Positions 384 through 45,053 of a stretch of DNA of 60,920 bases are shown here, piece after piece. The position numbers and the translations under genes are program-made. Origin of the DNA: Gemmatimonadales bacterium (GTDB taxonomy: Bacteria; Gemmatimonadota; Gemmatimonadetes; Gemmatimonadales; GWC2-71-9); NCBI GenBank assembly GCA_013140635.1, contig JABFSM010000063.1, forward strand, positions 1 to 60,920. Direction: 5' to 3'. Under the pieces are notes generated by a model that saw only the letters and a list, made by a program, of their open reading frames with translations, was not told the DNA's origin and did no database searches. Position 1 is the first letter of the stretch; every line of letters starts with the position of its first letter.

Positions 384-734
384 CTACTCGCCGCCTCCCA
401 ACAGCAGTCCACCGGCGCGGACGACGAGCGCGCGCATCCGTTCCGTCTCCGCGTTCGCCACCCGGCGGCCGAATCCGGTCAGCCGATAGTATTTCCGGGG
501 CGGCCCGTCCGATTCCTCCACCGGCCCCTCCGTTTCGGCGATGAGCCCCTCCTCCTCCATCTCCTTGAGCGTTCGATAGAGCGTCGCCGGCCCGAGCAAC
601 CACCGCTCCGCCGGCGTTTCCTGCAGCTCGCGCATCAACCCATAACCGTGCCGCGGACCCTCCGCCAGCGAGAGGAGGATGGCAAAAACGCGCGGGCGAA
701 CCGGGAGCCGGCCTGCCGGATCGCGGTCAGACAT
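384..734 (-). CDS. PadR family transcriptional regulator
   Basis: Winged-helix PadR signature: ILLSLAEGPRHGYGLMRELQE...GPATLYRTLKEMEEEGLI...PRKYYRLTGFG. 8-nt overlap with the permease gene upstream on the same strand. Confidence 0.9.
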   Translation of the reverse strand: MSDRDPAGRLPVRPRVFAILLSLAEGPRHGYGLMRELQETPAERWLLGPATLYRTLKEMEEEGLIAETEGPVEESDGPPRKYYRLTGFGRRVANAETERMRALVVRAGGLLLGGGE

Positions 735-27540: not shown

Positions 27541-27921
27541 ATGGGCCTGCGGCTGAGCGAGCGCGAGCTCGATGTCATGGCCGTGCTCTGGGCACGGGGC
27601 TCGGGAACGGTAACCGAGGTGCGTGAGGCGCTCAGCGATCCGCTGGCGTACACCACCGTCCTTACCGTGCTCCGCACGCTGGAGGAGAAAGGCTTCGTGG
27701 GCCACGAGGAGGAGGGAAAGGCCCACCGGTACCGGCCTCTCGTGGCGCGGGAGCGGGCCGGAAAGAGCGCGCTCTCCCGGATGGTCGCCAAGTTGTTCGA
27801 TGGATCGCCCGAACTGCTGCTGACGCAGCTCGTCAGCGACCAGCACCTCTCTCCGGCCGACCTCCGGCGGCTCCGCCGAATCCTCGATGAGCGGTTGCGC
27901 GCCGGGGGAAATTCCCGATGA
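27541..27921 (+). CDS. BlaI/MecI/CopY family transcriptional repressor
   Basis: LSERELDVMAVLWARGSGTVTEVREALSDPLAYTTVLTVLRTLEEKGFVGHEEEGKAHRYRPLV. ATGA overlap with the next gene. Confidence 0.9.
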   Translation: MGLRLSERELDVMAVLWARGSGTVTEVREALSDPLAYTTVLTVLRTLEEKGFVGHEEEGKAHRYRPLVARERAGKSALSRMVAKLFDGSPELLLTQLVSDQHLSPADLRRLRRILDERLRAGGNSR

Positions 27922-29141
27922 TCGCCTCCTGGATGCTCTACGCGGCTCTCGTCGGAGTGTTGGTCACGCTGGCGGCGCTCGCCGCGGAACGTGCCCTGAC
28001 CGCGCTGGGGCGGCCGGTGCGGTGGGTCTGGGCCTTGGCGCCCGCACTCTGCCTGCTCATTCCCTGCCTATCGCATTACATCCCCCGCGGCGGGCTCGAA
28101 CTCACCGCCATCGAACGGGTGGTCGTGAGCGCGCGGGCGGCGCTCGCGTCGGCAGAGGTGCCGGGATACGACACGGGGCCGCCGGGCGCCCTGCTCGAGC
28201 GGGCGCTTCTGGTGGGATGGGGCCTGCTCTCGTTCGGCATTGCCCAGCTCCTGCTCTTTTCGTCGGCGGTCTTACAGGGGCGCCGCAAGGAATGGCGGCG
28301 CCAAACGGTGGAGGGGGTCGAAATCTTGGTCGCTCCCGGCTTCGGGCCGGCCGTTGTCGGCTGGCGGCGGCTCGAAATCGTGCTCCCGGAGTGGGCGCTC
28401 GAGTTGGCCGAGGATGCGCGCGGCCTGGTGGTGCGGCACGAACGGGAGCATGTCGCGGCGCGCGATCCCCGCCTTCTCATTCACGCGTTCTGCGTGGTGC
28501 TCGCCATGCCGTGGAATCCGGCGCTCTGGTACCAGTTCCGGCGGCTTCGTCGCGCCATCGAGCTCGATTGCGACGCCCGGGTCGTTGGCGGGGGAGCGGA
28601 TGTTGCACGTTATGGGGAGGTGCTGATTGCGGCGGGAGGGCTCTGCCGCAACGGCGGACTGCCGGCGCTCGCCTCTTTTGCGGAACGGAGCACCGATCTC
28701 GAGGCGCGGATTCGGGCCCTCGTGCCCAACCGAACCGGCCAGCGGGCACCGAAGGTGGCCGCGGCGATGAGCATCGCGGCAGCCCTTACGGTTGCCGCCT
28801 GCCTCCTCCCCGACCCGCTGAGTCAGCCATCCGCGGCGTTGGCGGACAATCTACCGGACGCCACGAGCTGGGCCCTCGGTCAACTCTCAAAGTCGCGGCA
28901 GAGCGTCATGGACAACGGAACGATCGCGTTCTTCCGAAGCGCGTCGGGTAAGCTGCTCGCTACCCGCCTCCTCCCCGGCAAAGGACGAGGAATGCCGGGC
29001 GGCCCGCCGGTCGATTGGCCGGAGCTTGCGGAAACCGAGATTGCCGCGGTGGAGGTCGTCAAGGGTCAAGAATTCGAAGGGCGAAACATCGGGATCATCG
29101 TCGTCACGCTCAAGCCGGGGGCGACGTTCAAGAGGCCGTAG
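27918..29141 (+). CDS. M56 family (BlaR1-like) membrane metalloprotease/sensor
   Basis: N-terminal TM helices, then zinc motif VVRHEREHVAARDP (HExxH). C-terminal part ends IAAVEVVKGQEFEGRNIGIIVVTLKPG, which is plug/TonB-C-like. Confidence 0.85.
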   Translation: MIASWMLYAALVGVLVTLAALAAERALTALGRPVRWVWALAPALCLLIPCLSHYIPRGGLELTAIERVVVSARAALASAEVPGYDTGPPGALLERALLVGWGLLSFGIAQLLLFSSAVLQGRRKEWRRQTVEGVEILVAPGFGPAVVGWRRLEIVLPEWALELAEDARGLVVRHEREHVAARDPRLLIHAFCVVLAMPWNPALWYQFRRLRRAIELDCDARVVGGGADVARYGEVLIAAGGLCRNGGLPALASFAERSTDLEARIRALVPNRTGQRAPKVAAAMSIAAALTVAACLLPDPLSQPSAALADNLPDATSWALGQLSKSRQSVMDNGTIAFFRSASGKLLATRLLPGKGRGMPGGPPVDWPELAETEIAAVEVVKGQEFEGRNIGIIVVTLKPGATFKRP

Positions 29142-29365: not shown

Positions 29366-30211
29366 GCCTGCCTCGATTTGATGGACACCCTACCCGCCCT
29401 GATATTCATGGCACGGAGGTATCCGATGCCGACGTTTCGCCGAGCATTTAGTCCCGAGTTGAAGCTGGAAGCCGTGCGCCAAGTGATTGAAGGTGGTCGC
29501 TCGGCATCGCGCCGAGTACCTGCTAACCCTGATGTGCCGCGTGCTGGGCATCGCGCGCTCGGCGTTCTACGTCTGGCAACATCGGGGCCCCAGTGCGCAC
29601 GCGCAGACGGATGCGGCCCTGCGGTTGCGGATCGCCCCTCCCCACGAACGGAGCGATCGCAATTACGGCAGCCCGCGGATCGTGCGCGACCTGCGTGACG
29701 AGCAGTGCTTCGTCAGTCGGCGACGCGTCGCCCGCTTGATGGGTGAGCTCGGGCTCGATGACACGCCGCAGCCGCGCTTCGTCGTGACAACGCGGCCCGA
29801 CGCGGCCCTGCCGGTCGCGCCCAATCTCCTGGACCGGCACTTCGCCGTCGACGCACCCAACCGCGTCTGGGCCGCGGACGTGACATACTGTCGCACCGGC
29901 GAGGGCTGGCTGTACCTCGCGGTGGTGCTCGACCTCTGCTCGCGGTGCGTCGTCGGTCATGAGTCGTCGCGGGGATTGTTAGGACAATGCGGTGGTGGAG
30001 AGTTTCTTCGCGACGCTCAAGCGGGAATATGTACGGCAACATCGCTGGCCCACGCCGGCGAGTCTGCTGCTCGCGCTGGCGCGCTATCTCGATGGGTGGT
30101 ATAATCGCGAGCGGCGGCACTCGTCGCTCGGCTACGTCAGTCCGATCGTGTACGAACAGCAGCTCACCCAAGCTGTCTGACCCCGGTGTCCATTAATTCG
30201 AGGCAAGACCA
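29363..30211 (+). mobile_element. Internally deleted IS3-family element (849 bp) with intact inverted repeats and a 3-bp GGC target duplication
   Basis: Inner IR: 29370-29389 vs the reverse complement of 30185-30204 matches 18/20. Termini are TG...CA. GGC flanks both ends (29360-29362 and 30212-30214). The coding remnants are: orfA start MPTFRRAFSPELKLEAVRQVIEGG, joined directly to the orfB HTH (LTLMCRVLGIARSAFYVWQ); the rve start (PNRVWAADVTYCRTGEGWLYLAVVLDLCSR), joined to the C-terminus (DNAVVESFFATLKREYV...RERRHSSLGYVSP). At least two internal deletions. Confidence 0.75.
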
Positions 30212-30281: not shown

Positions 30282-30506
30282 CTAGGTTTTACTGCAAGAG
30301 ACCGAGCATTCATAGAAACCGGTTCCACATAGGTTGGGACTTGTGCAATGGTAGTAACTGGACCCCGAAATGGTGCATTTGCATCCGGCCTTACTTTGGG
30401 CTTCGACCTCCGCAGGCCGACCAGTTAGCGCCAAGATTCCTCCCAAGAACACGCCCAGCACACCATTGACAATCAGCAAGCGTCGAAATGAAAGGATCTG
30501 TGTCAT
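30282..30506 (-). CDS. Six-Cys leader peptide paralog A (74 aa)
   Basis: MTQILSFRRLLIVNGVLGVFLGGILALTGRPAEVEAQSKAGCKCTISGSSYYHCTSPNLCGTGFYECSVSCSKT. GGAGGG SD sits 9 nt upstream. Paralogous to B and C with identical Cys positions. Confidence 0.7.
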   Translation of the reverse strand: MTQILSFRRLLIVNGVLGVFLGGILALTGRPAEVEAQSKAGCKCTISGSSYYHCTSPNLCGTGFYECSVSCSKT

Positions 30507-30945
30507 TAAGTTCTGCCCTCCGCTTCATGAACTGGTGACCGATAGGATATCAGAACACCCATACCTAAGATACGCGCGCCGTTTCGTCAAGAGCCTTGTC
30601 AAGGCCCCGTGAGGTAAGACAAATGGCACCCGTGTGAAACTGAGGCAAAAGTGCCTCTACGGTCGGACAGGGGAGGCCCGCAAGGGCTAGTTTTCTCACG
30701 CACCTAGCGGCCCAAGACTGAGGAGGGCCGCCCTCACATCAAGCTTGAGTCTACCCCAGCAACTCCAACTGGGGCTACTTCTTAAGCCAGCGCAATCCCG
30801 CAATGGTGCTACTGGGCTCTGACATCGTAATGACATGGCTCGCTCTTCAGGTCTATTGACAGGCCATCGATAATATGTTAGGTAGGTTATGTACTATGTA
30901 CAACGTCCAAAGAATCAGCCGCCCATCACTCAAAGGGGGAGGACA

Positions 30946-31167
30946 ATGCCACAGGTTATGACGTTTCGGCGGCTAGCAATTGCCAACGGCGTACTGGGGG
31001 TTCTCCTGGGAGCAATCTTGGCACTCACTGGTCACCCGGCCGAGGCCGAGGCTCAAGGTAGCGGCGGCTGCAAGTGTACAATTTCGGGCAAGGGCGCCTA
31101 CGCATGCACAGTACCAAACGGCTGCTTCGCGGGCGCCTATAACTGCTCGGTGTCGTGCAAGACTTAG
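30946..31167 (+). CDS. Six-Cys leader peptide paralog B (73 aa)
   Basis: GGGGGAGG SD, then MPQVMTFRRLAIANGVLGVLLGAILALTGHPAEAEAQGSGGCKCTISGKGAYACTVPNGCFAGAYNCSVSCKT. Start moved from 30889. Confidence 0.7.
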   Translation: MPQVMTFRRLAIANGVLGVLLGAILALTGHPAEAEAQGSGGCKCTISGKGAYACTVPNGCFAGAYNCSVSCKT

Positions 31168-31380
31168 GGAGTGTGAAGGTTATGGCACCTGCCAAGACCC
31201 CGGTTTGGCATATGGGCCTAACTCGGTAGCACGGGGAGATTCGTACTGCTCTCTCGCGCCACGCCAGTACGCATCTCAGAGGGTTGTTGAGCAGTGCACA
31301 GCCGACCGGTGCGAATGTGTTGGTGGCTCAATTGCAAGAGGCTCGCTTGTGACCGTATCCACCTGAAGGAGGGTAAGACA

Positions 31381-31602
31381 ATGCGGCAAGTGCTTTCATT
31401 CAAGCGATTGGTTATTGCTAACGGCGCGCTCGGCGTACTTCTCGGAGGGATTTTGGCTTTGACCGGTCGCCCTGCGGAAGTCGAGGCCCAGGGTGGGGGG
31501 GGGTGCAAATGTACTATAACGGGCGCCAGCAAGTACTCCTGCGGCTCACCGAGTGCGTGCGCTGCCGGGTATTACCAGTGTTCAGTAACGTGTAAGACCT
31601 GA
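31381..31602 (+). CDS. Six-Cys leader peptide paralog C (73 aa)
   Basis: AAGGAGGG SD, then MRQVLSFKRLVIANGALGVLLGGILALTGRPAEVEAQGGGGCKCTITGASKYSCGSPSACAAGYYQCSVTCKT. Start moved from 31294. Confidence 0.7.
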   Translation: MRQVLSFKRLVIANGALGVLLGGILALTGRPAEVEAQGGGGCKCTITGASKYSCGSPSACAAGYYQCSVTCKT

Positions 31603-31681
31603 TGTGGCATTGGGAATCGTGGTGAGGTGACTTGAGGCGGCTGGCTGCAGTTCGATAGCTTTCGAAGAACGCGAGGCTCAA

Positions 31682-32836
31682 GTGCTTACTCATTCTCGCT
31701 CCATGCATCTTGCGGAGGGTCGAGGCTTTCAGTGGCCAACTCCATTGTCATCTCCCATACGACGAGGACCGCACCTCTCGCTGCGCGGAGCCCTGATAGT
31801 TGGTTCGTGCCTTGTACTTGGTGTTCAGCTATCTGCTCAAGCGAGCGTTCGCCTGGTGCCAACCGCAAGAACATCGTCAGACAAACTCGGCATGCTGACG
31901 GAGGTCACTGACGTCACGAGTGACAACCGAGGGGTCATCATACTGCTGGATGGACATTTGTCGCGAATCGTTGCCACTGACCACCAGCTCAAGCCACTTG
32001 CATACTTCGGACGACGAGGATCAGGCCCAGGGGAGTTCCGAGAAGCAGTCTCAATCCGGATGTTGTCACGTGCGCGGTTTGCCGTGCTTGATAGGGCCCT
32101 TCGCCGAGTAACGATTGTGGTAGTGAAGGACGGAGGTCGGTCACTTGTTCTTCAGCGAACAATTCCCCTCGGGGTAGCATCGGAGGCGATGTGTATCCTT
32201 CCCAGCGACGATATTCTGATCTATGGGTATGGTGCAGGCAAACGCTTGCACCTCTTTGGCATGGATAGCGGCCAGTTGCTGCGATCATTCGGGCCGTCGG
32301 ATTCCACCTCTTCACCCATGGCCCGGGACCTCGTTGCCACTGGCAGCATCTCGTGCGATGCCTCGCGTGATCAAGTTCTTGTCGCAAGTCGATTTCTCCC
32401 AGTGACTGAAGTGTTTCAAATCACTACGGGGCAGCGTGTCTGGGTGGATACGCTGCCGTTCTTTCGGCCCTTACGCGTGGAGGACGAGGGCACATCCGTT
32501 TCTCTCGTGAGCGGCCGCAGTGGCTATAGTCGAGTCTCGGGTGTGTTCGGGGTTGCGGGCTACCGCATATTTCAGACAAGGTATGACGCAAGGCAGGACC
32601 GGGCCACCATCGACACCATAGTGACTCATGTATATGCCATTCGTGAACGAGCCTGGATGCCACCAAATTTCCATGTACCACTCATTTTCCGTCTCGCTGA
32701 CACACTGGCATTATCAGTAGACGATGATGAGCGTATGGAATTGACGATTCAGATTAACAGAGTCACGCTCGCGAGCGGTGCGGGCGCAAGGGTCCTCCCT
32801 CGGAAGCATGAAACACCGCTCCGCAAACCGGACTAA
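31682..32836 (+). CDS. 6-bladed beta-propeller family protein (island copy)
   Basis: Hydrophobic N-terminal segment LRGALIVGSCLVLGVQLSAQA. The blade motif FGRRGSGPGEFREAVSI is shared with the chromosomal paralogs (GEGPGEF, GGGPGEY). Start may be GTG 31682 or ATG 31703. Confidence 0.6.
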   Translation: MLTHSRSMHLAEGRGFQWPTPLSSPIRRGPHLSLRGALIVGSCLVLGVQLSAQASVRLVPTARTSSDKLGMLTEVTDVTSDNRGVIILLDGHLSRIVATDHQLKPLAYFGRRGSGPGEFREAVSIRMLSRARFAVLDRALRRVTIVVVKDGGRSLVLQRTIPLGVASEAMCILPSDDILIYGYGAGKRLHLFGMDSGQLLRSFGPSDSTSSPMARDLVATGSISCDASRDQVLVASRFLPVTEVFQITTGQRVWVDTLPFFRPLRVEDEGTSVSLVSGRSGYSRVSGVFGVAGYRIFQTRYDARQDRATIDTIVTHVYAIRERAWMPPNFHVPLIFRLADTLALSVDDDERMELTIQINRVTLASGAGARVLPRKHETPLRKPD

Positions 32837-32850
32837 GGAGAACCTCTGTT

Positions 32851-33498
32851 ATGGTGGACCATCCCCAGGCGCGGCAGACTGTCGGGCGTGCTGTGGTGCT
32901 CATCGGAGTATTGGGTGGAACCATGTTTCTCTCTTATGGCCTCATGCGAGAGACCCGTAATGCCGCCCCCGGAGTTCCTGTCATACGAGCACCTGCGGAT
33001 ACATCGCGTCCGGCAATTCCCTTTGCATCAGGGAAGCACCTTGTCGCTTATATGCTCCTGTCAGCCGACTGCGGGTTCTGCACGGAGAAGGTTGCCAAGC
33101 AGGCGATAAGCCGGATCCGGGACTCTCTTCGCGCATCGCAAGAGAAGGCATTTGTCCACATATCGGTCGTGGCTGTGCTATTGGATGATGACATTCGCGC
33201 CGGCATCAAATACGCCGAGAGTCTGAACAGCGGCTTTGACGAGCTGAGTATCGGTGGAAGCTGGCTAAATGAGCATGTTATCAGACTGATCTGGCGAGAT
33301 GCTTTGGCGACTCCCCAGATTCCCCAAGTTCTCTTGTTTGAACGACCGGTTGACGCGAGCGCCTATCCGAGAAGTATCGACGTACAACGAGACTCACTGG
33401 TGTTGAGTGTAGCTGGACGCTCAGATCTCATCGATTGGGTGAATGCGGGCGCGCCGCTTGATTTTCGTCGCAAGAGACCTCTGGGCGTCCAGCCCTAG
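32851..33498 (+). CDS. Membrane-anchored thioredoxin-fold protein with CGFC active-site-like motif
   Basis: N-terminal TM VVLIGVLGGTMFLSYGL. HLVAYMLLSADCGFCTEKV is a CxxC at the start of a helix following a beta-strand. A later ...TPQIPQVLLFE could be the cis-Pro loop. Confidence 0.5.
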   Translation: MVDHPQARQTVGRAVVLIGVLGGTMFLSYGLMRETRNAAPGVPVIRAPADTSRPAIPFASGKHLVAYMLLSADCGFCTEKVAKQAISRIRDSLRASQEKAFVHISVVAVLLDDDIRAGIKYAESLNSGFDELSIGGSWLNEHVIRLIWRDALATPQIPQVLLFERPVDASAYPRSIDVQRDSLVLSVAGRSDLIDWVNAGAPLDFRRKRPLGVQP

Positions 33499-33642
33499 TG
33501 TCATGTGATATTTGCCACCATGCTGATGACACGCGGATCTGTCGGCACATCACGTGAATTCCATCACCCTCGCGATCGTGGCCAAGCCGACCGACCAACG
33601 CCTTCCGCCCAAAGGGAGCAGGCCGCTTCTCGGTACTAGGCA

Positions 33643-35091
33643 ATGACGACTCACTCGCCCTCGGCAGTCACGATCCACCAGCCGATCCGCCTCTTGGGAC
33701 GGAAACTGACGGCCGATGTGTTCCCCGATAGAGTCTACTTTGCGTTTGGTTCAGGTCGGCTCACATATGACTGCGTCAGTTGCGGCGCCAAGTGCTGCCA
33801 CGGACATGGATACTTGCTCAACCAGGATGTCGAGTTGGAGCGACAGTTGGCGCGGAGTCCCTCGGTCGCGCTCTTTTTCGAGCGTGGCAAGGAGGGCGAG
33901 GGAGCGAATCAGTATCTGGTGAAGAACTGTCCCTCAGGGTGCTTCTTTCTCACTTCTTCGGGAATGTGCGGCGTTCAGATTGACCATGGATACGACGCGA
34001 AACCAGAAACATGCCGCCTCTTTCCGTTCAACAATCTTCGTTGGCTCGATGGCTACTTGATCGTGAGGCCGCATCCGAACCTGTGCCCACTGGAGATTGT
34101 TGGCGGGAAAGAAGTCAACAAGAGATCGGAGCATCATGAGTTGCTCGAGGCAATGTGTCTCAAGCCGATCCAGAACGGAATCGATCAGTGCGAAACAAGC
34201 TACGAATCGCCAGGCGCGGCTATTGCTGCCGAGCGTAGGATAGTTGCTCTTTCAGAAGAGTTCCTCGCCAAGGGCGACTACTTGAGTTTTACCGTTGCCC
34301 AAACGGCGGCGGTGGGTCAAAGCACGGTGAAGGGCATGGGGGAAAAGACAGGGGAAGACGTGCATCGGTACGCAGCCGATGTGTGTCGGCTCCTCAGGAT
34401 TCCGGGCACTGTATTTGACAATGACCACGTATCACGAACCATGATCGCCATGACGCCCTATCTACGATCTCAGCTGGTGTTCAGCGATTGTGGGGCTGCG
34501 GCTTCGGGAGCGCGGATCGAGATCAGCGTTGAGCGAGTCCCGCTGGCGTTGCTGTCGCTCTACCTTATCGTGAGTACAGCCGCATCAATCGGTCCAACCG
34601 CCCCCCATTTTCAGACAGTTACGAGGCTGTATGATGATTTTCTGCCTCTGCTGATCTTATTCGCTCACCTGCATGACAGCATGGTGTGGCATGCGGAAGC
34701 CCCCGTGCCGTTCCCGGCGTGGGACAGCCCCGACCTGCAACGCCGATACATGCGCATCATTAGGGCTCTTCAGCCAGGTCCAGCAAGGAAGCGCCCGGCC
34801 CGGCTCTATGATATCCTGCACGAACATGCCATGCCGGAAGATGCGGATGGTCTCATTTTCTTGAAGGAACTTGCCAGGGGGCTCTTTGGACATCTCAAGG
34901 TACATGGCAATCACAACAAATGGACTGAACGTGTAGATGTCCGCGTTCGGATTCAATCCGCAATACACCGCTGGGCGTTGGGCCATATTGACGAAGGTGT
35001 CCTGGGTAGTCTGTATGCGCGGACAAGAAACCACCGCGGCAACAGCGCCAAGGCAAGAGATGCCGGGGCAAGCGTGGGCGGAGGGTCTTAG
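33643..35091 (+). CDS. YkgJ-family Cys-cluster (CxxCxxxCC) protein with ~300-aa C-terminal extension
   Basis: TYDCVSCGAKCCHGHGYLL...NCPSGCFFLTSSGMCGVQ...KPETCRLFPF is the UPF0153/YkgJ putative Zn/Fe-chelating pattern. I did not recognise the remainder (~aa 170-482). Confidence 0.7.
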   Translation: MTTHSPSAVTIHQPIRLLGRKLTADVFPDRVYFAFGSGRLTYDCVSCGAKCCHGHGYLLNQDVELERQLARSPSVALFFERGKEGEGANQYLVKNCPSGCFFLTSSGMCGVQIDHGYDAKPETCRLFPFNNLRWLDGYLIVRPHPNLCPLEIVGGKEVNKRSEHHELLEAMCLKPIQNGIDQCETSYESPGAAIAAERRIVALSEEFLAKGDYLSFTVAQTAAVGQSTVKGMGEKTGEDVHRYAADVCRLLRIPGTVFDNDHVSRTMIAMTPYLRSQLVFSDCGAAASGARIEISVERVPLALLSLYLIVSTAASIGPTAPHFQTVTRLYDDFLPLLILFAHLHDSMVWHAEAPVPFPAWDSPDLQRRYMRIIRALQPGPARKRPARLYDILHEHAMPEDADGLIFLKELARGLFGHLKVHGNHNKWTERVDVRVRIQSAIHRWALGHIDEGVLGSLYARTRNHRGNSAKARDAGASVGGGS

Positions 35092-35499: not shown

Positions 35500-35592
35500 T
35501 CAGAAGTGGCTCCGCAATTCTGAACAGGTCGGATAGTTGGATTGGCGGGCGTCACGGACGATCTTTCGTCCCTCGATTCTGGAGCCCCTCCG

Positions 35593-35895
35593 ATGTCCCG
35601 TCGTCCCCGTCGTAACCATGCCCCGGCCTTCAAGGCCAAGGTCGCCTTGGCGGCCGTCAAAGGGGAGGCCACGCTCGCCGAGCTCGCCCAACGCTTCGAT
35701 GTGCATCCGCACCAGATTGGCCAGTGGCGCGAGCAATTTCTCGCCGGCGCCGCCACGGTCTTTGCGGAGGGCCGCCCCCTCGACCCGCCCGTTGACGTGA
35801 AAGCGCTCCACGCCAAGATCGGGGAGCTGACCCTGGAGAATGATTTTTTAGATCGCGCGCTCGTCAAGGCCGGGTGGCCGAGCGCCAAGCGATGA
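35593..35895 (+). CDS. IS3-family transposase OrfA (HTH)
   Basis: MSRRPRRNHAPAFKAKVALAAVKGEATLAELAQRFDVHPHQIGQWREQFL...KIGELTLENDFLDRAL. Confidence 0.8.
   Translation: MSRRPRRNHAPAFKAKVALAAVKGEATLAELAQRFDVHPHQIGQWREQFLAGAATVFAEGRPLDPPVDVKALHAKIGELTLENDFLDRALVKAGWPSAKR
35844..35850 (+). promoter_or_regulatory. -1 programmed frameshift heptamer T TTT TTA
   Basis: In the orfA frame the codons read GAT TTT TTA. A -1 slip gives ...FFRSRARQGRVAERQAMIDRTH, which is the orfB frame. Confidence 0.6.
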
Positions 35896-36719
35896 TCGAC
35901 CGGACCCACGCCCTGCCGATTGCCCGGCAAGCGGCGGCCTTAGGCATCAGTCGCGGGAGCGTGTACGACATCCCGCGGCCGGTGGCGGACGCCGATCTCG
36001 CCCTGATGCGCCGCCTCGACGCCCTGCACCTCGAGTTTCCGTACGCCGGCGCGCGGCTCTTGCGCCGCGTGCTGCGGCGCCAGGGCGTCCAGGTGGGACG
36101 GCGGCATGTCGCGACCCTCATGCGGCGGATGGCGATCACGGCGATCGCGCCCCAGCCGGGCACTAGCCGCCGGCACCGGGCCCACCCCGTCTTTCCCTAT
36201 CTGCTGCGCGGGCGGACGATCACGCAGCCCAACCACGTCTGGGCGATGGACATCACGTACATCCCCATGGCACGCGGTTTCGTCTACCTCGCCGCTGTGA
36301 TGGACTGGGCGTCCCGGCGCGTGCTGAGCTGGCGCGTGTCGATCACGCTGGACCCGGCCTTCTGCCTCGACGCCGTCGAGGAAGCGGTCGCGAAGCATGG
36401 CTGCCCCACGATCCTCAACACCGATCAAGGCGCGCAGTTTACCAGCGCGGCCTTCACCGGGCTGCTGCAGGCCCGCGGCATCGCGATCAGCATGGACGGC
36501 CAGGGCTGCTGGCGCGACAACATCTTCGTCGAGCGCCTCTGGCGTTCCATCAAGTACGAGGAGGTCTACCTGCACGCCTACACCTCGGTGTCCGAGGCCA
36601 AGGCCAGCATCGGGCGGTATCTGCTCCAATACAACTCGGCCCGGCCGCACTCGAGTCTCGCCGACCAGACGCCCGATGAAGCGTACTTCACTCCGCGGTC
36701 ACTTCGGGCCGCGGCCTAA
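35874..36719 (+). CDS. IS3-family transposase OrfB (DDE/rve integrase core), expressed as an OrfAB fusion
   Basis: PNHVWAMDITYIPMARGFVYLAAVMDWASRRVLSW..., TILNTDQGAQFTS..., DNIFVERLWRSIKYEEVY...YNSARPHSSL. Confidence 0.85.
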   Translation: MAERQAMIDRTHALPIARQAAALGISRGSVYDIPRPVADADLALMRRLDALHLEFPYAGARLLRRVLRRQGVQVGRRHVATLMRRMAITAIAPQPGTSRRHRAHPVFPYLLRGRTITQPNHVWAMDITYIPMARGFVYLAAVMDWASRRVLSWRVSITLDPAFCLDAVEEAVAKHGCPTILNTDQGAQFTSAAFTGLLQARGIAISMDGQGCWRDNIFVERLWRSIKYEEVYLHAYTSVSEAKASIGRYLLQYNSARPHSSLADQTPDEAYFTPRSLRAAA

Positions 36720-36975: not shown

Positions 36976-37053
36976 AGCAACCAAAGTCGGGTGCGGGGCA
37001 TCGAATCGGGTATCCTTCGATCAGCGTTCGTCATCGTTTTCCGGGAGCCCCTG

Positions 37054-38262
37054 ATGCACCGCATACTTCTTGTCGCCCTGGCCATTTCGGCTTGTGGCGG
37101 CGGAGGGTCGCGTTCCAACCTTGCCCGCGCCGTTATCGATACCCTTCCCGGCGGCATCCTGCGCGTCACCAGCCCGAGCCCGACCGGTTGGGCCGACAGC
37201 TCGGGCGCCCGCCTCGTCGAAGAACTTCGCTTTCAGGGAGAAGAGGGCTCGCCGGGGGAGCTCGGTGACCCACGCAGCATGGCGGTCGACGAGGCGGGCA
37301 CGATCTACATTGCCGACACCAAGCCCGCGGTCATCAAGGTCTTTGGCCCAGACGGCAAGTTTGTCCGTACCTTCAGCCGGGAGGGCGAAGGGCCCGGCGA
37401 GTTCCGGATCGGCTTTCTTGCCGCGAGGAATGGGCGCCTTGCCCTCCACGATCCGATGGTGGCTCGCACCACGCTTTTCGACTCCGCCGGCACGTACCTG
37501 ACCAGCTGGCGGGCCTCCTGCTGCTATTGGAGCGACATTCAGCTCGACCGGGCGGGCCGTATCTATGTGCCCAGCATGTCGTCGCCGAAGCCGGGCGATC
37601 CGCCGCGGGGGACCCCGTACGTCCGGTGGTCGCAGGAGGGGGTGGCCCTCGACACCGTCTGGACGCCGCCGGGTCCCACCACCAAGAGTTGGACCGTGCG
37701 GGTGGGGGAGGGGAACAATAGGTCGATGATGAGCATGTCGGTGCCGTTCAGTCCCGTCTCCCAATCGACCTTGCATCCGGACGGCGGGTTCGTCTTCGGC
37801 TGGAACGGCGCCTATACGCTGGTCCGGAGCGGCACCGGAGCCGACTCGATGCTGGTCTTCGGCCGGAGCTGGGCCCCCGACCCGATCGGCGACGGGCGCC
37901 GTCAGGCGGAGGTGGAGTCCCGCGTCCGAGCCTCGAAGGACTCATACGGAGAAGCGAACCTGCGCGCGGTCTTCAAGGTGGAGGATATCCCGGCGACCTT
38001 CCCCGCCTTCCAGAGCCTGCACGTCGACGAAAGCGGCCGCGTCTGGGCGCGCCGTTATGCGGTGTCCGATTCGACCCGCACCACCTTCGACCTCTTTGCC
38101 GGGACGGGCGCCTGGCTCGGCACGGTCACCGCGCCGTTCCGAGTGCGGGACTACGGCTTGCAGGTGTACACCAAGAGCGGCTTCGTCGCGATCATCGAGG
38201 ATGAAGAGGGGCGCCCGACGGTGGTCCGCGTGCGGCTCGACATCCGCCCGTCGGACGACTAG
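37054..38262 (+). CDS. 6-bladed beta-propeller lipoprotein paralog
   Basis: MHRILLVALAISACGG lipobox. MAVDEAGTIYIAD, FGPDGKFVRTFSREGEGPGEF and the conserved C-terminal blade are present. Start moved from 36991. Confidence 0.7.
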   Translation: MHRILLVALAISACGGGGSRSNLARAVIDTLPGGILRVTSPSPTGWADSSGARLVEELRFQGEEGSPGELGDPRSMAVDEAGTIYIADTKPAVIKVFGPDGKFVRTFSREGEGPGEFRIGFLAARNGRLALHDPMVARTTLFDSAGTYLTSWRASCCYWSDIQLDRAGRIYVPSMSSPKPGDPPRGTPYVRWSQEGVALDTVWTPPGPTTKSWTVRVGEGNNRSMMSMSVPFSPVSQSTLHPDGGFVFGWNGAYTLVRSGTGADSMLVFGRSWAPDPIGDGRRQAEVESRVRASKDSYGEANLRAVFKVEDIPATFPAFQSLHVDESGRVWARRYAVSDSTRTTFDLFAGTGAWLGTVTAPFRVRDYGLQVYTKSGFVAIIEDEEGRPTVVRVRLDIRPSDD

Positions 38263-39305
38263 GGAAAGAGCGCCGGCAGCGGCGCCCGCCCCACATACTC
38301 GAGGTCATCCTCGTCCCGGCGAACCAGATACATGGCCCCGCGCCCGAATCCGGCCAGGCGGGTGCGCGGCGGACAGGCCACCCTGGCCACGAGCCGGCCC
38401 GACAGGTCAAGTACGTCGTACCGGAAGACGGAATCGGTGGCCGCCATAGTCCGCTGAATCCAGACATAGCCGTTAGGTGACGGCCGAGTCGATGGGCCGG
38501 AGAAGGGCGGCTTCTGGGCGGGGATCGCGAGGTCGCCGGGAAGTCCCGCGCGATCCAAGGCGGTCGTCTTGATCGGCACGTATGGAAGCCTTGGACCGCT
38601 CGTGCGCTTCCCGTCCGGACCGACGACCTCGAGGTGATAGTCGCCGGTGCGCAGGACCAGCACCCGCCCATCGGGGAGCACGGCCCAGTCGTCGTGGGGC
38701 ACGAAGGGAACCAGACGGATCTCGACCGCCTTGAGTACCCCGCCGGCGCTGGTGGTCTGAATATCGCGCCGAGCCACCAAGATCCTAGCCAGGGTATCGA
38801 GCCGCCCGGCGGCCCGGTCTAGGCGGAGGATAGGCACCGAGTCGGCGATCTTGAGTGGCTCGTTTGGGTCAAGCGCCGAGCCCGCAAAGTAGAGCCGCCC
38901 GGCGGCGTCTCCAGCCGCCGGAGTCCGCGCCGCGTCTGGAAGGGACCCCTCGTTCGTCCCGATCCGGAACGTGGCCCCGAGCGCTCCCATCGGCGAAACC
39001 AGCAGGCTCCGGCGCTGGCGCGGGTCGGTTAGGAGAACGGAATCTCGGCCAAAGATCACGAAGCGACCGGGGGCGCGGTATTCCCCTGGACCACCACCCT
39101 GGCGCCCCACCGGTACCGTGGTGCCGCCGGCAAAATCGACCAGCCGAACCGCCGCGTCCTTTGAATCCACCACGAGGAGCCGTCCGTCGGGAAGTTCGTG
39201 GATGGCACCGACCACGGTGAAGGGCTCCGGGTGCTCGACGGTGGGGCGTGGCATCGGGCGTTCGGGAAGCGCTTGGGCCAGCAGGGCCAAGACCACCAAC
39301 GACAT
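38259..39305 (-). CDS. 6-bladed beta-propeller paralog
   Basis: GGAGGA SD 6 nt before ATG 39305 (MSLVVLALLAQAL...). LPDGRLLVVDSKDAAVRLVDF, GRQGGGPGEY, and C-terminal ...MYLVRRDEDDLEYVGRAPL. The longer ORF to 39557 is rejected. Confidence 0.7.
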   Translation of the reverse strand: MSLVVLALLAQALPERPMPRPTVEHPEPFTVVGAIHELPDGRLLVVDSKDAAVRLVDFAGGTTVPVGRQGGGPGEYRAPGRFVIFGRDSVLLTDPRQRRSLLVSPMGALGATFRIGTNEGSLPDAARTPAAGDAAGRLYFAGSALDPNEPLKIADSVPILRLDRAAGRLDTLARILVARRDIQTTSAGGVLKAVEIRLVPFVPHDDWAVLPDGRVLVLRTGDYHLEVVGPDGKRTSGPRLPYVPIKTTALDRAGLPGDLAIPAQKPPFSGPSTRPSPNGYVWIQRTMAATDSVFRYDVLDLSGRLVARVACPPRTRLAGFGRGAMYLVRRDEDDLEYVGRAPLPALFP

Positions 39306-39339
39306 GGCGTCCTCCATTTCGTACCGCAGAAGTCGGCTG

Positions 39340-39357
39340 CTACTATATTTATAGTAG
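39340..39357. promoter_or_regulatory. Second copy of the CTACTA-N6-TAGTAG palindrome (candidate BlaI-family operator)
   Basis: CTACTATATTTATAGTAG. It lies 35 nt upstream of ATG 39305 on the minus strand, in the intergenic region shared with the TolC operon. Contains TATAGT/TATAAA -10-like hexamers on both strands. Confidence 0.45.
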
Positions 39358-39541
39358 ACAATACCCCGCTCCAGCCTGCCGGTCAATCCGATCCGCGGGC
39401 GGGCGAACACCGTCCCAGAGAACGCTGCGTCCCTGCCCGGGGGTCGTGCATCTATAAGCTCGGCTCCCCCAGGGACCATCCTTGGTCCTAGGCTCCCGGC
39501 GGTATCTTCCGGGCTTCGCTCGACCCCGACGTGAGGATTCT

Positions 39542-40846
39542 GTGCGACGATTGACATTCGTCTTGGCCGCCTGCGTCCTGACGGCGGCCCCCAAGAGCGC
39601 TCATGGGCAGCAGCGGAGCGTCACCCTGGCTGAGGCAATCCAGCTCGCCGAGAAGGCGGCACCGAACGTGGTGCAGGCGCTGGGCACCGTGCGCGCCACC
39701 GGCGCCGGCGTTCGAGCCGCCTGGGGGGAGTACCTGCCTCGGCTCTCGACCAATGCCAGCTATGGAAGCAGTTTCTCCGACGGCCCTTCGCGCACCGATC
39801 CGATTACCGGTGAGGTCATTCCCGGCGGGTCCTCGTCGAGCTCGCTGACCGTCGGGGCGAGCGGGTCGATCGACATCTTCACCGGCTTTCGGCGGGGGGC
39901 CTCGATGTCGTCGGCCAAGGCCAACCGGACCGATGCGGAGGCGGCTCTGGCCTTCGAGCGGGCCCAATCGGCGCTGACGACCACCAACCAGTTCCTGCAA
40001 GCGCTGCAGGGGGCCGACCTCGTCCGGGTTCGCCAGGACGCGATCCGCCGGGCTCAGGAAAAGCTCGCGATCGCGAACGCGAGGCTCTCGACCCGTGGGG
40101 TGACGATCGCCGATTCGCTGCAGGCCGTCGTCGACCTGACCGGCACGCGGCTTCAGCTCCTCAACGACGAGCGCGCCCTCACCGAGGCCGAGGCGAATCT
40201 GGCCCGGTATCTCGGCCTCGACGGCCGGGTGGCCGCGGTGACGGACTCTTCGCTCTTCCGCACGGTCACGATCGCCGATGCGAACGAACTCATGGCGGAA
40301 GCGATGGAACGGTCGCCGCAGGTGATCCGCGCCGTGGCGGCGGTGCGGCTGGCCCGGGCCAATCTCGGGCTCACCCGATCGGCCTACTTCCCCGCCATTA
40401 CGCTTTCCGGCAGCACCTCGTACGGCGGCAGCGACCGCAACAGCTACAACCTCTTCAACAACCGCAGCGTCAATCTCGGGGTGCAGTGGCAGCTCTTCAA
40501 CGGCTTCGCGCGGGAGCGGGACATGACGACCCGGCGCGCATCGCTCGAGGCGGCGGAGGCCCGTGAGGCGGACGCGCGGCGGCAGATCGGGGCGTCGCTC
40601 ACCACGTACCTGGCGGCGCTGCGCACGGCGCAGGAGCGCACGACGCTCACGCAGCAGAACCTCGAATCGGCCCGCGCCAGCGCACAGGTGCAGACCGAGC
40701 GGTACCGGCTCGGCTCGATCGGGATCGTCGAGCTGAACGCCGCGCAGGATGCCCTGTCACGGGCGGAGACCGACGCGGTCAGCGCACGGTACGACTACCT
40801 CCGCGCCAAAACTCAGATCGAAGCGACTCTCGGGAGGACGCTGTGA
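39542..40846 (+). CDS. TolC-family outer-membrane efflux protein
   Basis: GAGGA SD, then GTG 39542 (VRRLTFVLAACVL... signal). Two repeats of the OEP pattern (...LTLAEAIQLAEKAAPNV...; ...YDYLRAKTQIEATLG). Confidence 0.85.
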   Translation: MRRLTFVLAACVLTAAPKSAHGQQRSVTLAEAIQLAEKAAPNVVQALGTVRATGAGVRAAWGEYLPRLSTNASYGSSFSDGPSRTDPITGEVIPGGSSSSSLTVGASGSIDIFTGFRRGASMSSAKANRTDAEAALAFERAQSALTTTNQFLQALQGADLVRVRQDAIRRAQEKLAIANARLSTRGVTIADSLQAVVDLTGTRLQLLNDERALTEAEANLARYLGLDGRVAAVTDSSLFRTVTIADANELMAEAMERSPQVIRAVAAVRLARANLGLTRSAYFPAITLSGSTSYGGSDRNSYNLFNNRSVNLGVQWQLFNGFARERDMTTRRASLEAAEAREADARRQIGASLTTYLAALRTAQERTTLTQQNLESARASAQVQTERYRLGSIGIVELNAAQDALSRAETDAVSARYDYLRAKTQIEATLGRTL

Positions 40847-41994
40847 GCTTTGCACCCCGCATGCTGTCTCGCGCGGCCCTAACGGCCTCGTTCCTCGCCG
40901 GCGCCTTGGCCGGCTGCGACAAGACCAAGACCGACGCCGCCGCGCCCGGGGCGCCGGGCAGCCCGGCGAGCGACACCTCCGCGGTCTCCGGACCCGCCAT
41001 CGCCCTCCCGGTCGTGGGCCAGGAGGTCCGCAAAGGAGACCTTGTGCTCTCGGTGGTGACCACCGGGCAGGTCCGCTCCGAGGCGATGTCGATGCTCAAG
41101 AGCGAAACCCAAGGACAAATCGTGGCGGTGCTGGTCCGGCCCGGCGACCGGGTGAGAAAGGGCCAGCCGCTGGTTCAGGTCGATCCGCGGCCGCTCGACC
41201 TGGCGGTCCAAGACGCCACCGCCAAACTCGAAGAATCCCGGCTCCGGCTGCTCGACAATACCGTTCCCGATTCGATCGTCACGGGGAAGGCGCTGACGGG
41301 GGAGCGGCTCCGCAACGCCGAGATCCGCTCCGGCATCGACGCGGCGAGAGTCGCGCTGGAGCAGCGCAAACTCGAGCGGGAGCGGGCCACGATCCTCGCC
41401 CCGTTCGACGGCGTGATGGATGAGGTGAAGGTGGCGGTGGGGGAACGGCTCACCAACGGGCAGGAGATCGGGCGCGTCGTGGATATCGACCATCTCCGCA
41501 TCGAAGCGGCCGTCTTGGAACATGACCTGCCGCTCATTCGCGTCGGCGGCCAAGCCATCATCACCACGGCCTCGGCGCCCGACGCGCCGGTGTCCGGCGT
41601 GATTGCGGCGGTGCTGCCGCTGGTGGACAGCGCCACCCGAGCCGGCCGCGCGGTCATCCGCACCGGCGGCAGCCGAGTGCTCCGCCCCGGGATGTATGCC
41701 GACGTCCGGCTCGAAGCCAACCGGCTTCCCGACCGCATCATCGTGCCGGCGCGCGCGGTGATCGAGCGCGACGGCCGCCCCCTCGTTTTCGTGGTGAAGG
41801 ACGGCCGCGCCCAGTGGGTCTACATCTTCCCCGGCCGAAGCAACGGCGTCGAAACCGAAGTGCTCCCGGACAGTTCCACCGGCCAGATTCCGCTGAACCC
41901 CGGTGACATGGTGCTCGTCGAGGGCCACTTGACGCTGACCCACGATGCGCCGGTGCGGGTCACTCCGAAGGCGGAACGGGGGACGCGGCCGTAA
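40843..41994 (+). CDS. RND efflux periplasmic adaptor (MFP/HlyD_D23 family)
   Basis: Lipoprotein-like LAGALAGCD. Barrel-sandwich/hairpin pattern ...GQIVAVLVRPGDRVRKGQPLVQVDPRPLD...TILAPFDGVMDEV...RPGMYADVRL. GTGA overlap with the TolC gene. Confidence 0.85.
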   Translation: MSFAPRMLSRAALTASFLAGALAGCDKTKTDAAAPGAPGSPASDTSAVSGPAIALPVVGQEVRKGDLVLSVVTTGQVRSEAMSMLKSETQGQIVAVLVRPGDRVRKGQPLVQVDPRPLDLAVQDATAKLEESRLRLLDNTVPDSIVTGKALTGERLRNAEIRSGIDAARVALEQRKLERERATILAPFDGVMDEVKVAVGERLTNGQEIGRVVDIDHLRIEAAVLEHDLPLIRVGGQAIITTASAPDAPVSGVIAAVLPLVDSATRAGRAVIRTGGSRVLRPGMYADVRLEANRLPDRIIVPARAVIERDGRPLVFVVKDGRAQWVYIFPGRSNGVETEVLPDSSTGQIPLNPGDMVLVEGHLTLTHDAPVRVTPKAERGTRP

Positions 41995-44900: not shown

Positions 44901-45053
44901 CTGGTCTTCGGATGGGGCAGCGGCGGCGCGCTCTACCAGCCGCTGGCCGCCGGGGTGATCGGCGGCAGCGTCTCGGCGCTGGCGGTGACGTTCTTCTTGC
45001 TCCCGACCGCGTACGCTTGGCTCGAACGGAAGAAGGAGGCAAGGCGCGTATGA
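41994..45053 (+). CDS. RND efflux permease (AcrB/AcrD/AcrF superfamily), subunit 1
   Basis: 1019 aa, 12-TM/two-loop architecture. LKRPVTTIAMTLGVMLLG..., LSLGGLALGIGLLIDNAIVV..., GLVVMIGMADNEAVV. TAATG overlap upstream and ATGA overlap downstream. Confidence 0.9.
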   Translation: MSLASAALKRPVTTIAMTLGVMLLGAVSLGRLPVSLLPDVSLPVLTIRTAYTGAAATEVSRFIAEPIEQAVAATPGLVDLRSVSRNGEAVTTMRFTWGTDMATTVLQVRERLDNARANLPERADRPTLLTSDPGERPIAVLGLTGPGDLRSIARTASDVHARRLEQLAGVASVAVVGDPKDDIRVDVDPEKARALGITPENVGSAIREANAGAPGGTVRRGQFRFALRALTEFQDVEEVARTPVGPARSGITLADVATVKLGSADPKTMTRLDGAPAVGLVVYKDAGANTVGVTNNMYETIAVLAKEFPDVRIKVVAAQAQFVTDALSNLGQEIVIGGILSLIVIVIFLRDLRGSVAIALIIPLSILTSLTILQVLDVTINILSLGGLALGIGLLIDNAIVVADATNRYKEAGLGDHEAAERATEEVTAPLVAGTLTTLLVFGPIVFVQGLAAALFRDLSLSVVVTLTTALVLALTLMPVMMVRWRPHAPAARPDSTGEDTRLLSRWGHAVAELYERGMYWSLAHHRTVFGLAVVVTLVTVAITIRLPREILPQVDEGTAVAQLNLPQGTAIEETAIQAGRLEAAAKAMGSAGIYSRIGLATNEEVLAGADPGTSATAQLIIPVPDGQDAQRFADRLRAAVPDLAQGALAIDLAGQSEFGSLIGREGRLVRVEVTAPKLDEADRWADSVRRRIKPLTTLADVRDAFSGTQPTIEVTLERQRIAEYGLSVGAVASALAGGLGGVASGEYRETDRRTPITVRFAGNANEDLATALATQVRGIPVGQLVTVREVRAPVEVVRINQRPVSVVEAVVERGGTARATEDVTNALASIKPPPGLSWQLAGADAEQQRTTRELSLVAVLSVALVFLVLAGEFASFTTPLLVMLTVPLAAAGGLIFLWLTGQSLNAVSLIGLVVMIGMADNEAVVKLDAIRRFREQGHSIDEAVVLGGRQRLRAIAMTSITTITGVLPLVFGWGSGGALYQPLAAGVIGGSVSALAVTFFLLPTAYAWLERKKEARRV

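Follow-up and report, generated by a model that had tools for sequence, protein, structure and literature searches.

Introduction

The Escherichia coli heat-stable enterotoxin STa is produced as a pre-pro-peptide of about 72 amino acids that carries a Sec signal and six cysteines; three periplasmic disulfides are formed via the Dsb enzymes, and the gene is flanked by insertion sequences (ISs). STb leaves the periplasm via MacAB-TolC. In the sublancin operon, the Bdb proteins are dedicated thiol-disulfide oxidoreductases of a disulfide-dependent bacteriocin. Here we analyze a gene cassette that invites comparison with these systems. It lies in a 60,920-nucleotide stretch of contig JABFSM010000063.1 from a Gemmatimonadales bacterium (assembly GCA_013140635.1), the whole of which is called the window below. 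The cassette comprises three genes for paralogous six-cysteine peptides (P1, P2, and P3), accompanied by genes for an NHL-repeat propeller-like protein (propA), a membrane-anchored thioredoxin-like protein, and a YkgJ-type Cys-cluster protein (Table 1). These peptides and their neighbors are a new family and a new cassette, not represented in curated databases, with a logic like that of known secreted disulfide-peptide systems. On balance, we favor the reading that the peptides are Sec-exported three-disulfide miniproteins, served by a dedicated periplasmic thiol-disulfide isomerase and a propeller partner.

With the Sec-dependent unmodified (class II-type) bacteriocins, the cassette appears to share a small exported peptide, disulfides, a clustered thioredoxin-fold gene, paralogs, and a mobile accessory cluster. 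It differs from them in several respects: neither sequence nor fold matches, its host is probably diderm, the thioredoxin-like family is new and often has a CxxS site, a propeller is present, immunity and ABC-peptidase genes are not recognizable, and most members are acidic. Likewise, a six-Cys precursor with a Sec-type signal, IS flanks, and the ADOP/MacB permeases that stand beside the cassette in two related loci (L026 and L034) recall STa and STb, but the spacing of the Cys is unrelated, as is the predicted fold, an isomerase-like protein and a propeller are present, and there is no pro-region. We rejected an identity with STa, given that no Pfam match was obtained and that the framework CxC-x9-C-x5-C-x6-C-x3-C is unlike the STa spacing.

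Ribosomally synthesized peptides with post-translational modifications (RiPPs) provide the other comparison. A previous reading of the window made from its letters only (hereafter the original prediction) took the cassette for a bacteriocin or RiPP-like locus, while remarking that it holds no radical S-adenosylmethionine (SAM), LanM/LanB, or YcaO gene. The open reading frames (ORFs) of the island agree with that remark: none encodes a radical SAM, LanB/M, YcaO, MNIO, or C39 protein. The sole candidate for a cytoplasmic modifying enzyme, the YkgJ-like protein, is not co-conserved with the peptides (see below). The co-conserved thioredoxin-like gene is not of this type because its product would handle disulfides only. 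SCIFF/ranthipeptides (six Cys in forty-five residues) were dismissed for want of a radical SAM gene in the island and of an NCBIfam match. The MNIO-modified, copper-binding bufferins, with Cys-containing precursors that have Sec signals and a periplasmic site of action, resemble what is predicted for the window peptides, and one bufferin family has six conserved Cys (PMC12452194); the cassette, however, lacks the MNIO (DUF692) and DUF2063 genes. The bufferin assignment was accordingly set aside, with no ORF of either type at 30.2–35.1 kb and no bufferin-type profile among the Pfam and NCBIfam matches. We found no description of the cassette in the literature on NVEALA/DUF5128, YkgJ, disulfide-rich bacterial peptides, or clusters combining NHL, thioredoxin, and peptide genes.

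A Family of Six-Cysteine Peptides from Uncultured Bacteria

An exhaustive HMMER profile search of 1.84e9 representatives (cut-off E ≤ 0.001) returned 105 peptide clusters, 57 of them at E ≤ 1e-10 and nearly all 64–100 amino acids long. Members were found only in metagenomes and metagenome-assembled genomes (MAGs) of uncultured bacteria. Word-index protein searches gave one outside homolog with the three window peptides and 11 homologs with a nine-sequence alignment as query; such searches are nearly blind to sequences this short, and the family size is therefore taken from the HMMER run only. Neither the three window peptides (at E ≤ 1) nor four relatives (at E ≤ 0.1) have a Pfam or NCBIfam model, and the family gave no match in PADLOC or PDB. 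The original prediction had not recognized the peptide family, and indeed no characterized family matches it.

We aligned 102 members, leaving out the five-Cys matches P0045, P0048, and P0073, the sequences P0114, P0118, P0120, and P0121, and the circular permutant P0119. The invariant columns of the core are the six Cys and one Gly, within the framework G-C-x-C-x7-9-[Y]-x-C-x5-7-C-x-[AP]-G-x3-C-x3-C, in which the Tyr is conserved in 83/102. Net charge of the core is −1 or lower in 78/102, and the cores are nearly devoid of His and Met. Two deviant forms were noted. A sub-clade (P0068, P0069, P0089, and P0100; the last at L033:8001-8240) has a C-terminal tail …C-C-G-x-x-E-x-C… that brings the count to eight Cys, and a divergent paralog at L004:1476-1688, flanked by the thioredoxin-like gene and a canonical member of the family, combines a family-type signal peptide with seven Cys and longer loops.

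At the window locus, the three paralogous genes with strong Shine-Dalgarno sequences and six Cys in register (42/44/54/60/67/71) that had been predicted are all present. GGAGG, GGGGGAGG, or GGAGGG stands 6–9 nt before each start; the mechanical ORFs of P2 and P3 begin farther upstream, and their length is 73 amino acids when counted from the start that follows a ribosome-binding site. The peptides are 66–68% identical to one another. Synonymous sites are saturated between the paralogs (proportion of synonymous differences, pS, 0.65–1.0), and the proportion of nonsynonymous differences (pN) is low, at 0.12–0.16 in residues 1–36 vs 0.26–0.27 in the core. Saturated pS with low pN shows that P1–P3 are old duplicates under purifying selection and real genes; they are neither recent copies nor products of gene conversion. 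A hidden Markov model (HMM) of the core run on the six-frame translation of the window found P1–P3 only (E ~1e-15), the next best hit being at 0.29.

Fourteen independent loci were compared: the window, L001, L004, L006, L007, L026, L028, L029, L030, L031, L033, L034, L036, and L037. Loci L011–L020 are one genomic region, 99–100% identical with flanks included, and were for this reason counted once rather than as ten independent insertions; L007, L009, and L011–L020 make up a single locus. The original prediction had named the lack of homologous peptides and of conserved synteny elsewhere as grounds for dropping it. As both homologs and conserved synteny exist, neither ground applies.

A Thioredoxin-Like Gene Is the Constant Partner of the Peptide Genes

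A gene for a thioredoxin-like protein immediately adjoins the peptide gene(s) in 13 of the 13 independent loci with sufficient flank (the window, L001, L004, L006, L007, L026, L028, L029, L031, L033, L034, L036, and L037), which makes this protein the constant partner of the peptides. It gave no sequence match in Pfam, NCBIfam, or PDB, and a PDB search with its profile returned nothing useful. No match was obtained among GTDB species representatives, a search in which the source genome itself was also not recovered. The family is small, with 12 clusters reached by word search in addition to those reached through the loci.

Modeling with AlphaFold2 (AF2) gave a predicted local distance difference test (pLDDT) score of 79, above 90 in the core, and Foldseek, with probability 1.0 and E 3e-5 to 1e-3, aligned the model with ResA, DsbE/CcmG, Mycobacterium tuberculosis DsbE/F, and TlpA. 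A transmembrane segment spans residues 14–32, and the CGFC site follows a strand (61–70) at the N-terminus of helix 1. The thioredoxin fold that had been predicted from the CGFC motif is thus borne out, and the modeled protein is a member of the thioredoxin superfamily and a new family of the ResA/TlpA-like kind. It shares with ResA, CcmG (DsbE), and TlpA the fold, the N-terminal membrane anchor, and a CxxC after strand 1; it differs from them in its 11–18% identity, in a second Cys that is often Ser, and in its linkage to peptide genes instead of genes for cytochrome or copper maturation. In the family, the first Cys of the active site alone is invariant: the window has CGFC, and CGWS, CGFS, CAFS, CGWC, and CAAC occur elsewhere.

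Loci L026, L034, and L036 have DsbA-like genes within the cassette or close to it, and LuxR- or AraC-type regulators occur in L001, L007, L034, and L036. ADOP/MacB permeases adjoin the cassette in L026 and L034, the latter with an OEP-MFP-ABC-ATPase set a few kilobases off. In L034 (3212-14221), the thioredoxin-like and peptide genes have a gene for an S26 signal peptidase I and an ADOP/MacB permease directly upstream of them, and a DsbA-like gene, a GerE regulator, and the OEP-MFP-ABC export set on the downstream side.

Sec-Type Signal Anatomy at the N-Terminus

Members of the family have an N-terminus organized like a Sec signal, with conserved n-, h-, and c-regions and a −3/−1 small-residue rule: position 9 is basic in 70/102, and there follow a hydrophobic stretch of 19 residues (Kyte-Doolittle 2.1–2.3), Pro at −7 in 72/102, Ala, Leu, or Val at −3 in 85/102, and Ala at −1 in 74/102. 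This anatomy would suit small precursors with a Sec signal peptide cleaved after AxA. The original prediction had taken a conserved leader joined to a hypervariable core as the signature of a RiPP. That contrast is real within the window locus, where it is seen in the pN values given above, but it does not describe the family. N-terminal sequence varies freely from locus to locus while the core stays recognizable and holds most of the invariant positions; P0003, with MSRLNRWLVGLAIAGAFSGASAGFSQA/EVKESELLGCKCT… (the slash marks the predicted cut here and below), is an example.

Three other interpretations of the N-terminus were rejected. Tat export is not indicated, since the position of the presumed twin arginine holds RR, KR, KQ, GR, or KG across type-A members (defined below). 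A double-glycine leader does not fit either, as the GG motif is absent family-wide and a C39 transporter is absent. An N-terminal pyroglutamate as a designed feature was discarded because Gln at +1 is not conserved beyond the window locus.

One feature of the N-terminus goes beyond this anatomy. A Gly within the hydrophobic stretch is invariant (102/102), and a second Gly four residues upstream in 95/102 gives a GxxxG motif, which in P3 is formed by G18 and G22 (31432-31446). Given the invariant Gly of the signal peptide and the stronger N-terminal constraint among P1–P3, the N-terminus may have a recognition partner of higher specificity than Sec.

The Core Is Predicted to Be a Small All-Beta Fold with Three Disulfides

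The AF2 model of the 37-residue core, built on the 102-sequence alignment, is all-beta (pLDDT 86) with strands at residues 6–20, 23–26, and 29–35. Foldseek matched it to nothing in PDB, the method being weak for queries this small. Cys counts in the alignment are 6 in 97 members and 8 in five; no member has an odd number. In the eight-Cys variant of L028, the added Cys lie at C1−2 and C6+2, which fits terminal strands that run antiparallel and are joined by a C1-C6 bridge. Together, these observations suggest a disulfide ladder of C1-C6, C2-C3, and C4-C5 with adjacent termini. Three disulfides had been offered by the original prediction as the simplest alternative to unusual chemistry, and it is this alternative that the evidence appears to favor.

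Three circular permutants were found, two in L026 (L026:894-1097 and L026:1142-1375) and one, P0119, in L037 (L037:149-379). These have the CxCT[IV]G element at the C-terminal end of the core, whereas in other members it stands at the N-terminal start. Rotating the two L026 sequences restored an end-to-end match to the family profile and raised the score from 29 to 35–38 bits; P0119 gained only ~1 bit. Joining the termini of the two L026 permutants would rebuild exactly the canonical 7-residue loop. All three lie in a normal type-A cassette, with propA and the thioredoxin-like gene downstream, and their presence in the same context implies that adjacent termini are required.

The peptides could instead be a periplasmic metal or redox buffer, with thiols that are kept reduced by the TlpA/ResA-like protein and serve as ligands of a soft metal such as Cu(I) or Zn, as in bufferins, copper storage proteins, and metallothioneins. 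This would agree with the closest structural neighbors of the thioredoxin-like protein, which are reductants and include the TlpA-ScoI and Sco1 copper-chaperone systems, and with the acidity of most cores and their CxC and Cx3C motifs. RND/CusB-like efflux genes flank the L028 cassette and are also nearby in the window, and a YkgJ homolog lies beside the copper protein DUF411 in L023. However, the Cys count is always even and the extra Cys are paired at structurally matching positions; the confident all-beta model would place Cys in cross-strand pairs; DsbA-like oxidases neighbor the cassette in L026, L034, and L036; and the cores have almost no His or Met. CxxS variants alone cannot reduce a disulfide, and proximity to RND and ADOP genes may be due to chance because both are very abundant in these genomes. 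We consider a metal or redox buffer unlikely.

Propeller Type Varies with Peptide Clade and Gene Order

A propeller gene is present in 12/14 loci, in two arrangements. In type A (the window, L001, L026, L028, L029, and L037), peptides with a CxCTISG-type core are followed by propA (~360 amino acids) and then the thioredoxin-like gene; L030, a 1-kb contig, shows peptides and propA only. In type B, a DUF5128-like lipoprotein propeller (~411 amino acids) precedes a thioredoxin-like gene with CGWS, which is followed by acidic peptides with a CKCDDDG-type core. An AraC-like regulator lies between propeller and thioredoxin-like gene in the type B loci L007 and L031, and in L006 the propeller comes after the peptide gene. 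The propeller type tracks peptide clade and gene order, and a signal peptide or lipobox is present in the propellers.

The original prediction had called the propA product a six-bladed propeller. Orthologs adjoin the peptides in L001, L026, L028, L029, L030, and L037, and the profile of six of them matched the NHL propellers Thin, TRIM71, TRIM2/3, and Brat in PDB at E = 2.6e-20 over only ~75 positions; the window protein itself had no Pfam match above cutoff. The assignment is partly supported, by these NHL matches. A second propeller gene of the DUF5128-like type (propB type) lies in the window just beyond the right-hand IS and has host-like codon usage, with a GC content at third codon positions (GC3) of 0.84. 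Propellers of this kind also stand after the cassette in L028 and L029 and accompany the peptides of type B loci; the window copy may be associated with the cassette.

The co-variation of propeller type, peptide clade, and gene order is also what one would expect of a periplasmic hetero-complex, in which the propeller has the peptide as a small subunit or as a tightly bound ligand and assembly needs the thioredoxin-like factor. Methylamine dehydrogenase offers the parallel, with its propeller heavy subunit MauB, the Cys-rich MauA with a long signal peptide, and the thioredoxin-like MauD. All three products of the cassette are predicted to be extracytoplasmic, and the aromatic residue of the core is nearly invariant (Tyr, as above). 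Against such a complex, one to three divergent peptide paralogs occur per single propeller, the L034 peptides have no adjoining propeller, and the L033 propeller is separated by IS elements; no potentially catalytic residue is common to both propeller types, and the proteins have no sequence relation to Mau proteins. In our view, a hetero-complex of this kind is distinctly improbable.

The YkgJ-Like Protein Is an Occasional Accessory

The original prediction proposed that peptide, propeller, thioredoxin-like, and YkgJ-like genes be checked for co-occurrence. The first three do travel together, as described above; the YkgJ-like gene does not. It was found in 2/14 loci, the window and L001, and in L001 an IS cuts it to 178 amino acids. 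Full-length homologs with 36–38% identity occur in Gemmatimonadaceae and Vicinamibacterales MAGs (five MAGs) and have no family peptide nearby. The predicted YkgJ motif itself is supported by PF03692, if barely (23.1 bits vs a cutoff of 23.0), and by eight Cys (C44, C47, C51, C52, C100, C109, C124, and C148) that are invariant in six homologs. PDB searches with the protein and with a YkgJ-like profile gave nothing useful.

Flagellin is methylated ahead of its export by FliB, a [4Fe-4S]/SAM enzyme of the cytosol (PMC8598068). The window protein resembles FliB and the YkgJ family (PF03692) in its N-terminal CxxCxxxCC-type cluster, eight conserved Cys, and long C-terminal extension. Its match to the NCBIfam FliB model NF038110, however, is confined to the cluster domain (residues 86–128) at 15.8 bits vs a cutoff of 85, the best relative reaching 31 bits, and its last 300 residues were matched by nothing searched. 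We therefore did not assign it as a flagellin lysine N-methylase.

These data bear on the possibility that the peptides are bufferin-like true RiPPs, in which the N-terminus doubles as the recognition sequence for the cytoplasmic YkgJ-type Fe-S enzyme and the core undergoes a FliB-like modification (for example, of Lys, Cys, or Tyr) before Sec export. There is precedent in the bufferins, whose precursor Sec signal peptides also serve enzyme recognition (PMC12452194), and in FliB, with eight conserved Cys and a CX4CX3CC cluster (PMC8598068), to which the CxxCxxxCC plus four more conserved Cys of the YkgJ-like protein can be compared. The purifying selection that is stronger on the N-terminus than on the core at saturated synonymous divergence (dS), the invariant Gly in the signal peptide, and the YkgJ adjacency kept between the window and L001 at only 39–49% protein identity would all fit such a system. 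The scarcity and truncation of the gene, its full-length homologs in MAGs that lack a nearby peptide, and the weak, local match to FliB argue otherwise, and no feature of the peptides tracks the presence of the YkgJ-like gene. True RiPP maturation by this protein is, in our estimation, unlikely.

We regard the YkgJ-like protein as an accessory that may be linked to thiol chemistry in the envelope rather than as the maturase of the peptide family. Its homologs in L022 (677-5212) and L024 (6290-10406) adjoin genes for membrane-anchored DsbA-like (Thioredoxin_4) proteins. Other Cys-rich ORFs with signal peptides occur in L024 and L025, and L024 also has a nitroreductase gene and an unrelated 79-amino-acid ORF with a signal peptide and 10 Cys. 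In L023, a DUF411 gene lies upstream of the YkgJ homolog and RamS-like peptides downstream. This suggests that the YkgJ subfamily is linked more widely to envelope disulfide systems; if so, there is a recurring tie between YkgJ-type Fe-S proteins and extracytoplasmic thiol-oxidoreductase genes. The L023 peptides are tandem 56-amino-acid, six-Cys products (L023:9804-9974 and 10091-10261) with a near-threshold match to RamS, the SapB-type lanthipeptide precursor.

A Proposed Pathway for Export and Disulfide Formation

In the pathway that we favor, the three paralogous pre-peptides would be exported by Sec, as their N-terminal anatomy suggests, and cut by signal peptidase I after AxA (…AE[AV]EA/Q) to give peptides of 37–38 residues. 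These would fold in the periplasm to small all-beta miniproteins with three disulfides, oxidation being supplied by a housekeeping or neighboring DsbA. The membrane-anchored thioredoxin-like protein would then most likely isomerize or proof-read the disulfides of the peptides rather than act as the primary oxidant, given that only its first active-site Cys is conserved (CxxC or CxxS). A CxxS site can shuffle disulfides and cannot introduce them. The exported NHL-type propeller most likely binds the folded peptide, perhaps as a carrier, receptor, or self-protection protein, and the YkgJ-type Fe-S/Zn protein would be an optional cytoplasmic accessory.

The weakest step is the role of the mature peptides. 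Our guess is that they are secreted competition or signaling peptides, similar in principle to Sec-dependent unmodified bacteriocins or heat-stable enterotoxins, because the cassette is IS-flanked and multi-copy, the loops are variable, and relatives have their own LuxR/AraC-type regulators. Whether the propeller or thioredoxin-like protein could act as an immunity factor is a matter of conjecture.

Several points weigh against this pathway. The proposed disulfide connectivity rests on secondary structure and sequence variants, not on coordinates. ResA, CcmG, and TlpA are reductants, and a relative of theirs would fit thiols that are kept reduced. Most cores are acidic, unlike classical cationic antimicrobial peptides, and the window island has no recognizable gene for immunity or export. 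The N-terminus presents further difficulties: an invariant Gly and near-invariant GxxxG are unusual and are not accounted for by generic Sec targeting, the N-termini of P1–P3 are more constrained than their cores despite saturated synonymous divergence, and a hydrophobic stretch of 19 residues exceeds the usual length in signal peptides and could instead anchor the peptide in the membrane. The GxxxG motif, the local N-terminal constraint, and the circular permutants lie outside what the proposed mechanism explains.

A more novel reading is that of a new class of bacterial ribosomal peptides, in which the signal peptide with its invariant Gly and GxxxG would be a specific recognition element, either, in the window lineage, for a cytoplasmic modification by a YkgJ/FliB-type Fe-S enzyme before Sec export or for capture of the membrane helix by the thioredoxin-like protein, and the permutants would reflect a cyclotide-like scaffold that can be closed head to tail. 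We give this a low probability; if correct, both the maturation chemistry and the disulfide-rich fold on which it acts would be new.

Should the pathway of export, folding, and isomerization hold, the peptides would be an unannotated bacterial family of disulfide-rich miniproteins, with 105 clusters among 15 billion proteins. Bacteria are not known as a rich source of disulfide-rich miniprotein scaffolds. A scaffold that accommodates circular permutation and an added disulfide as well as hypervariable loops would be attractive for peptide engineering. The thioredoxin-like proteins would be a new branch of their superfamily dedicated to a single peptide substrate and often monothiol (CxxS), and would offer a natural model of substrate-specific disulfide isomerization in the bacterial periplasm. 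The cassette would also offer a concrete, testable way to study chemical ecology in poorly cultured lineages; homologs of the YkgJ-like protein are found in Gemmatimonadota and Acidobacteriota MAGs.

The Cassette Lies on an IS-Flanked Island

The mobile, low-GC island of the original prediction is evident in base composition and in its edges. GC content is 55–57% at 30–35 kb vs 62–71% in the remainder of the window, and GC3 is ~0.6 vs 0.8–0.9; elements of the IS3 family lie on both sides (Table 1). The contig is chromosomal, with gyrA at 49353. The cassette is horizontally acquired and peptide-centered, with a redox partner. A repeat search found no direct or inverted repeats bounding the island, and neither the thioredoxin-like nor the YkgJ-like protein matched a plasmid collection. 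PADLOC had no match, and the cassette is thus not a known defense system. Rfam gave nothing credible, including for the divergent region between P1 and P2; a promoter and terminator scan did no better than on shuffled sequence, and a consensus scan found no promoter-like site in that region.

Table 1. Coordinates of the cassette genes and of the features that border them in the window (a slash marks a predicted signal peptide cut)
Feature	Position	Strand	Properties
Degraded, frameshifted IS3-family transposase remnant	29378..30180	+	HTH_Tnp_1, HTH_21, rve, rve_2, and rve_3 fragments; left edge of island
P1, 74 aa	30282..30506	-	Residues 1-36 Sec-type signal ending AEVEA/Q; predicted mature core 38 aa, six Cys; family HMM E ~6e-16
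Divergent intergenic region P1/P2, 439 bp	30507..30945		Presumed promoter location
P2, 73 aa	30946..31167	+	Predicted signal 30946-31053, core 31054-31164
P3, 73 aa	31381..31602	+	Predicted signal 31381-31488, core 31489-31599; core modeled all-beta
NHL-repeat propeller-like protein propA, 384 aa	31682..32836	+	Predicted N-terminal signal …LVLGVQLSAQA/S (hydropathy); NHL matches
Membrane-anchored thioredoxin-fold protein, 215 aa	32851..33498	+	Active site C74-G-F-C77; ResA/TlpA-like (AF2 and Foldseek)
YkgJ-type Cys-cluster protein, 482 aa	33643..35091	+	C44xxC47xxxC51C52 plus C100, C109, C124, C148; CRLFPF; predicted cytoplasmic
Intact IS3-family transposase	35542..36719	+	orfA 35542-35895, orfB 35874-36719; right edge of island
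Second propeller, DUF5128-like, propB type	36991..38262	+	Lipobox LAISAC; weak PF17170 and NHL matches; aligns with L006 and L007 propellers

Other genes of the window were noted around the island. A 432-amino-acid ORF on the minus strand (38259-39557) has coding-like codon usage and no Pfam or PADLOC match. A BlaI/BlaR1-type repressor and M56 sensor pair lies near the island at 27541-29141, a PadR regulator with an ADOP duplicated permease at 384-3477, and an OEP-MFP-RND-RND efflux operon at 39482-48157; in L028, the cassette is inserted between MFP and RND genes. The BlaI/BlaR1-M56, PadR-ADOP, and OEP-MFP-RND families are typically expanded in Acidobacteriota and Gemmatimonadota.

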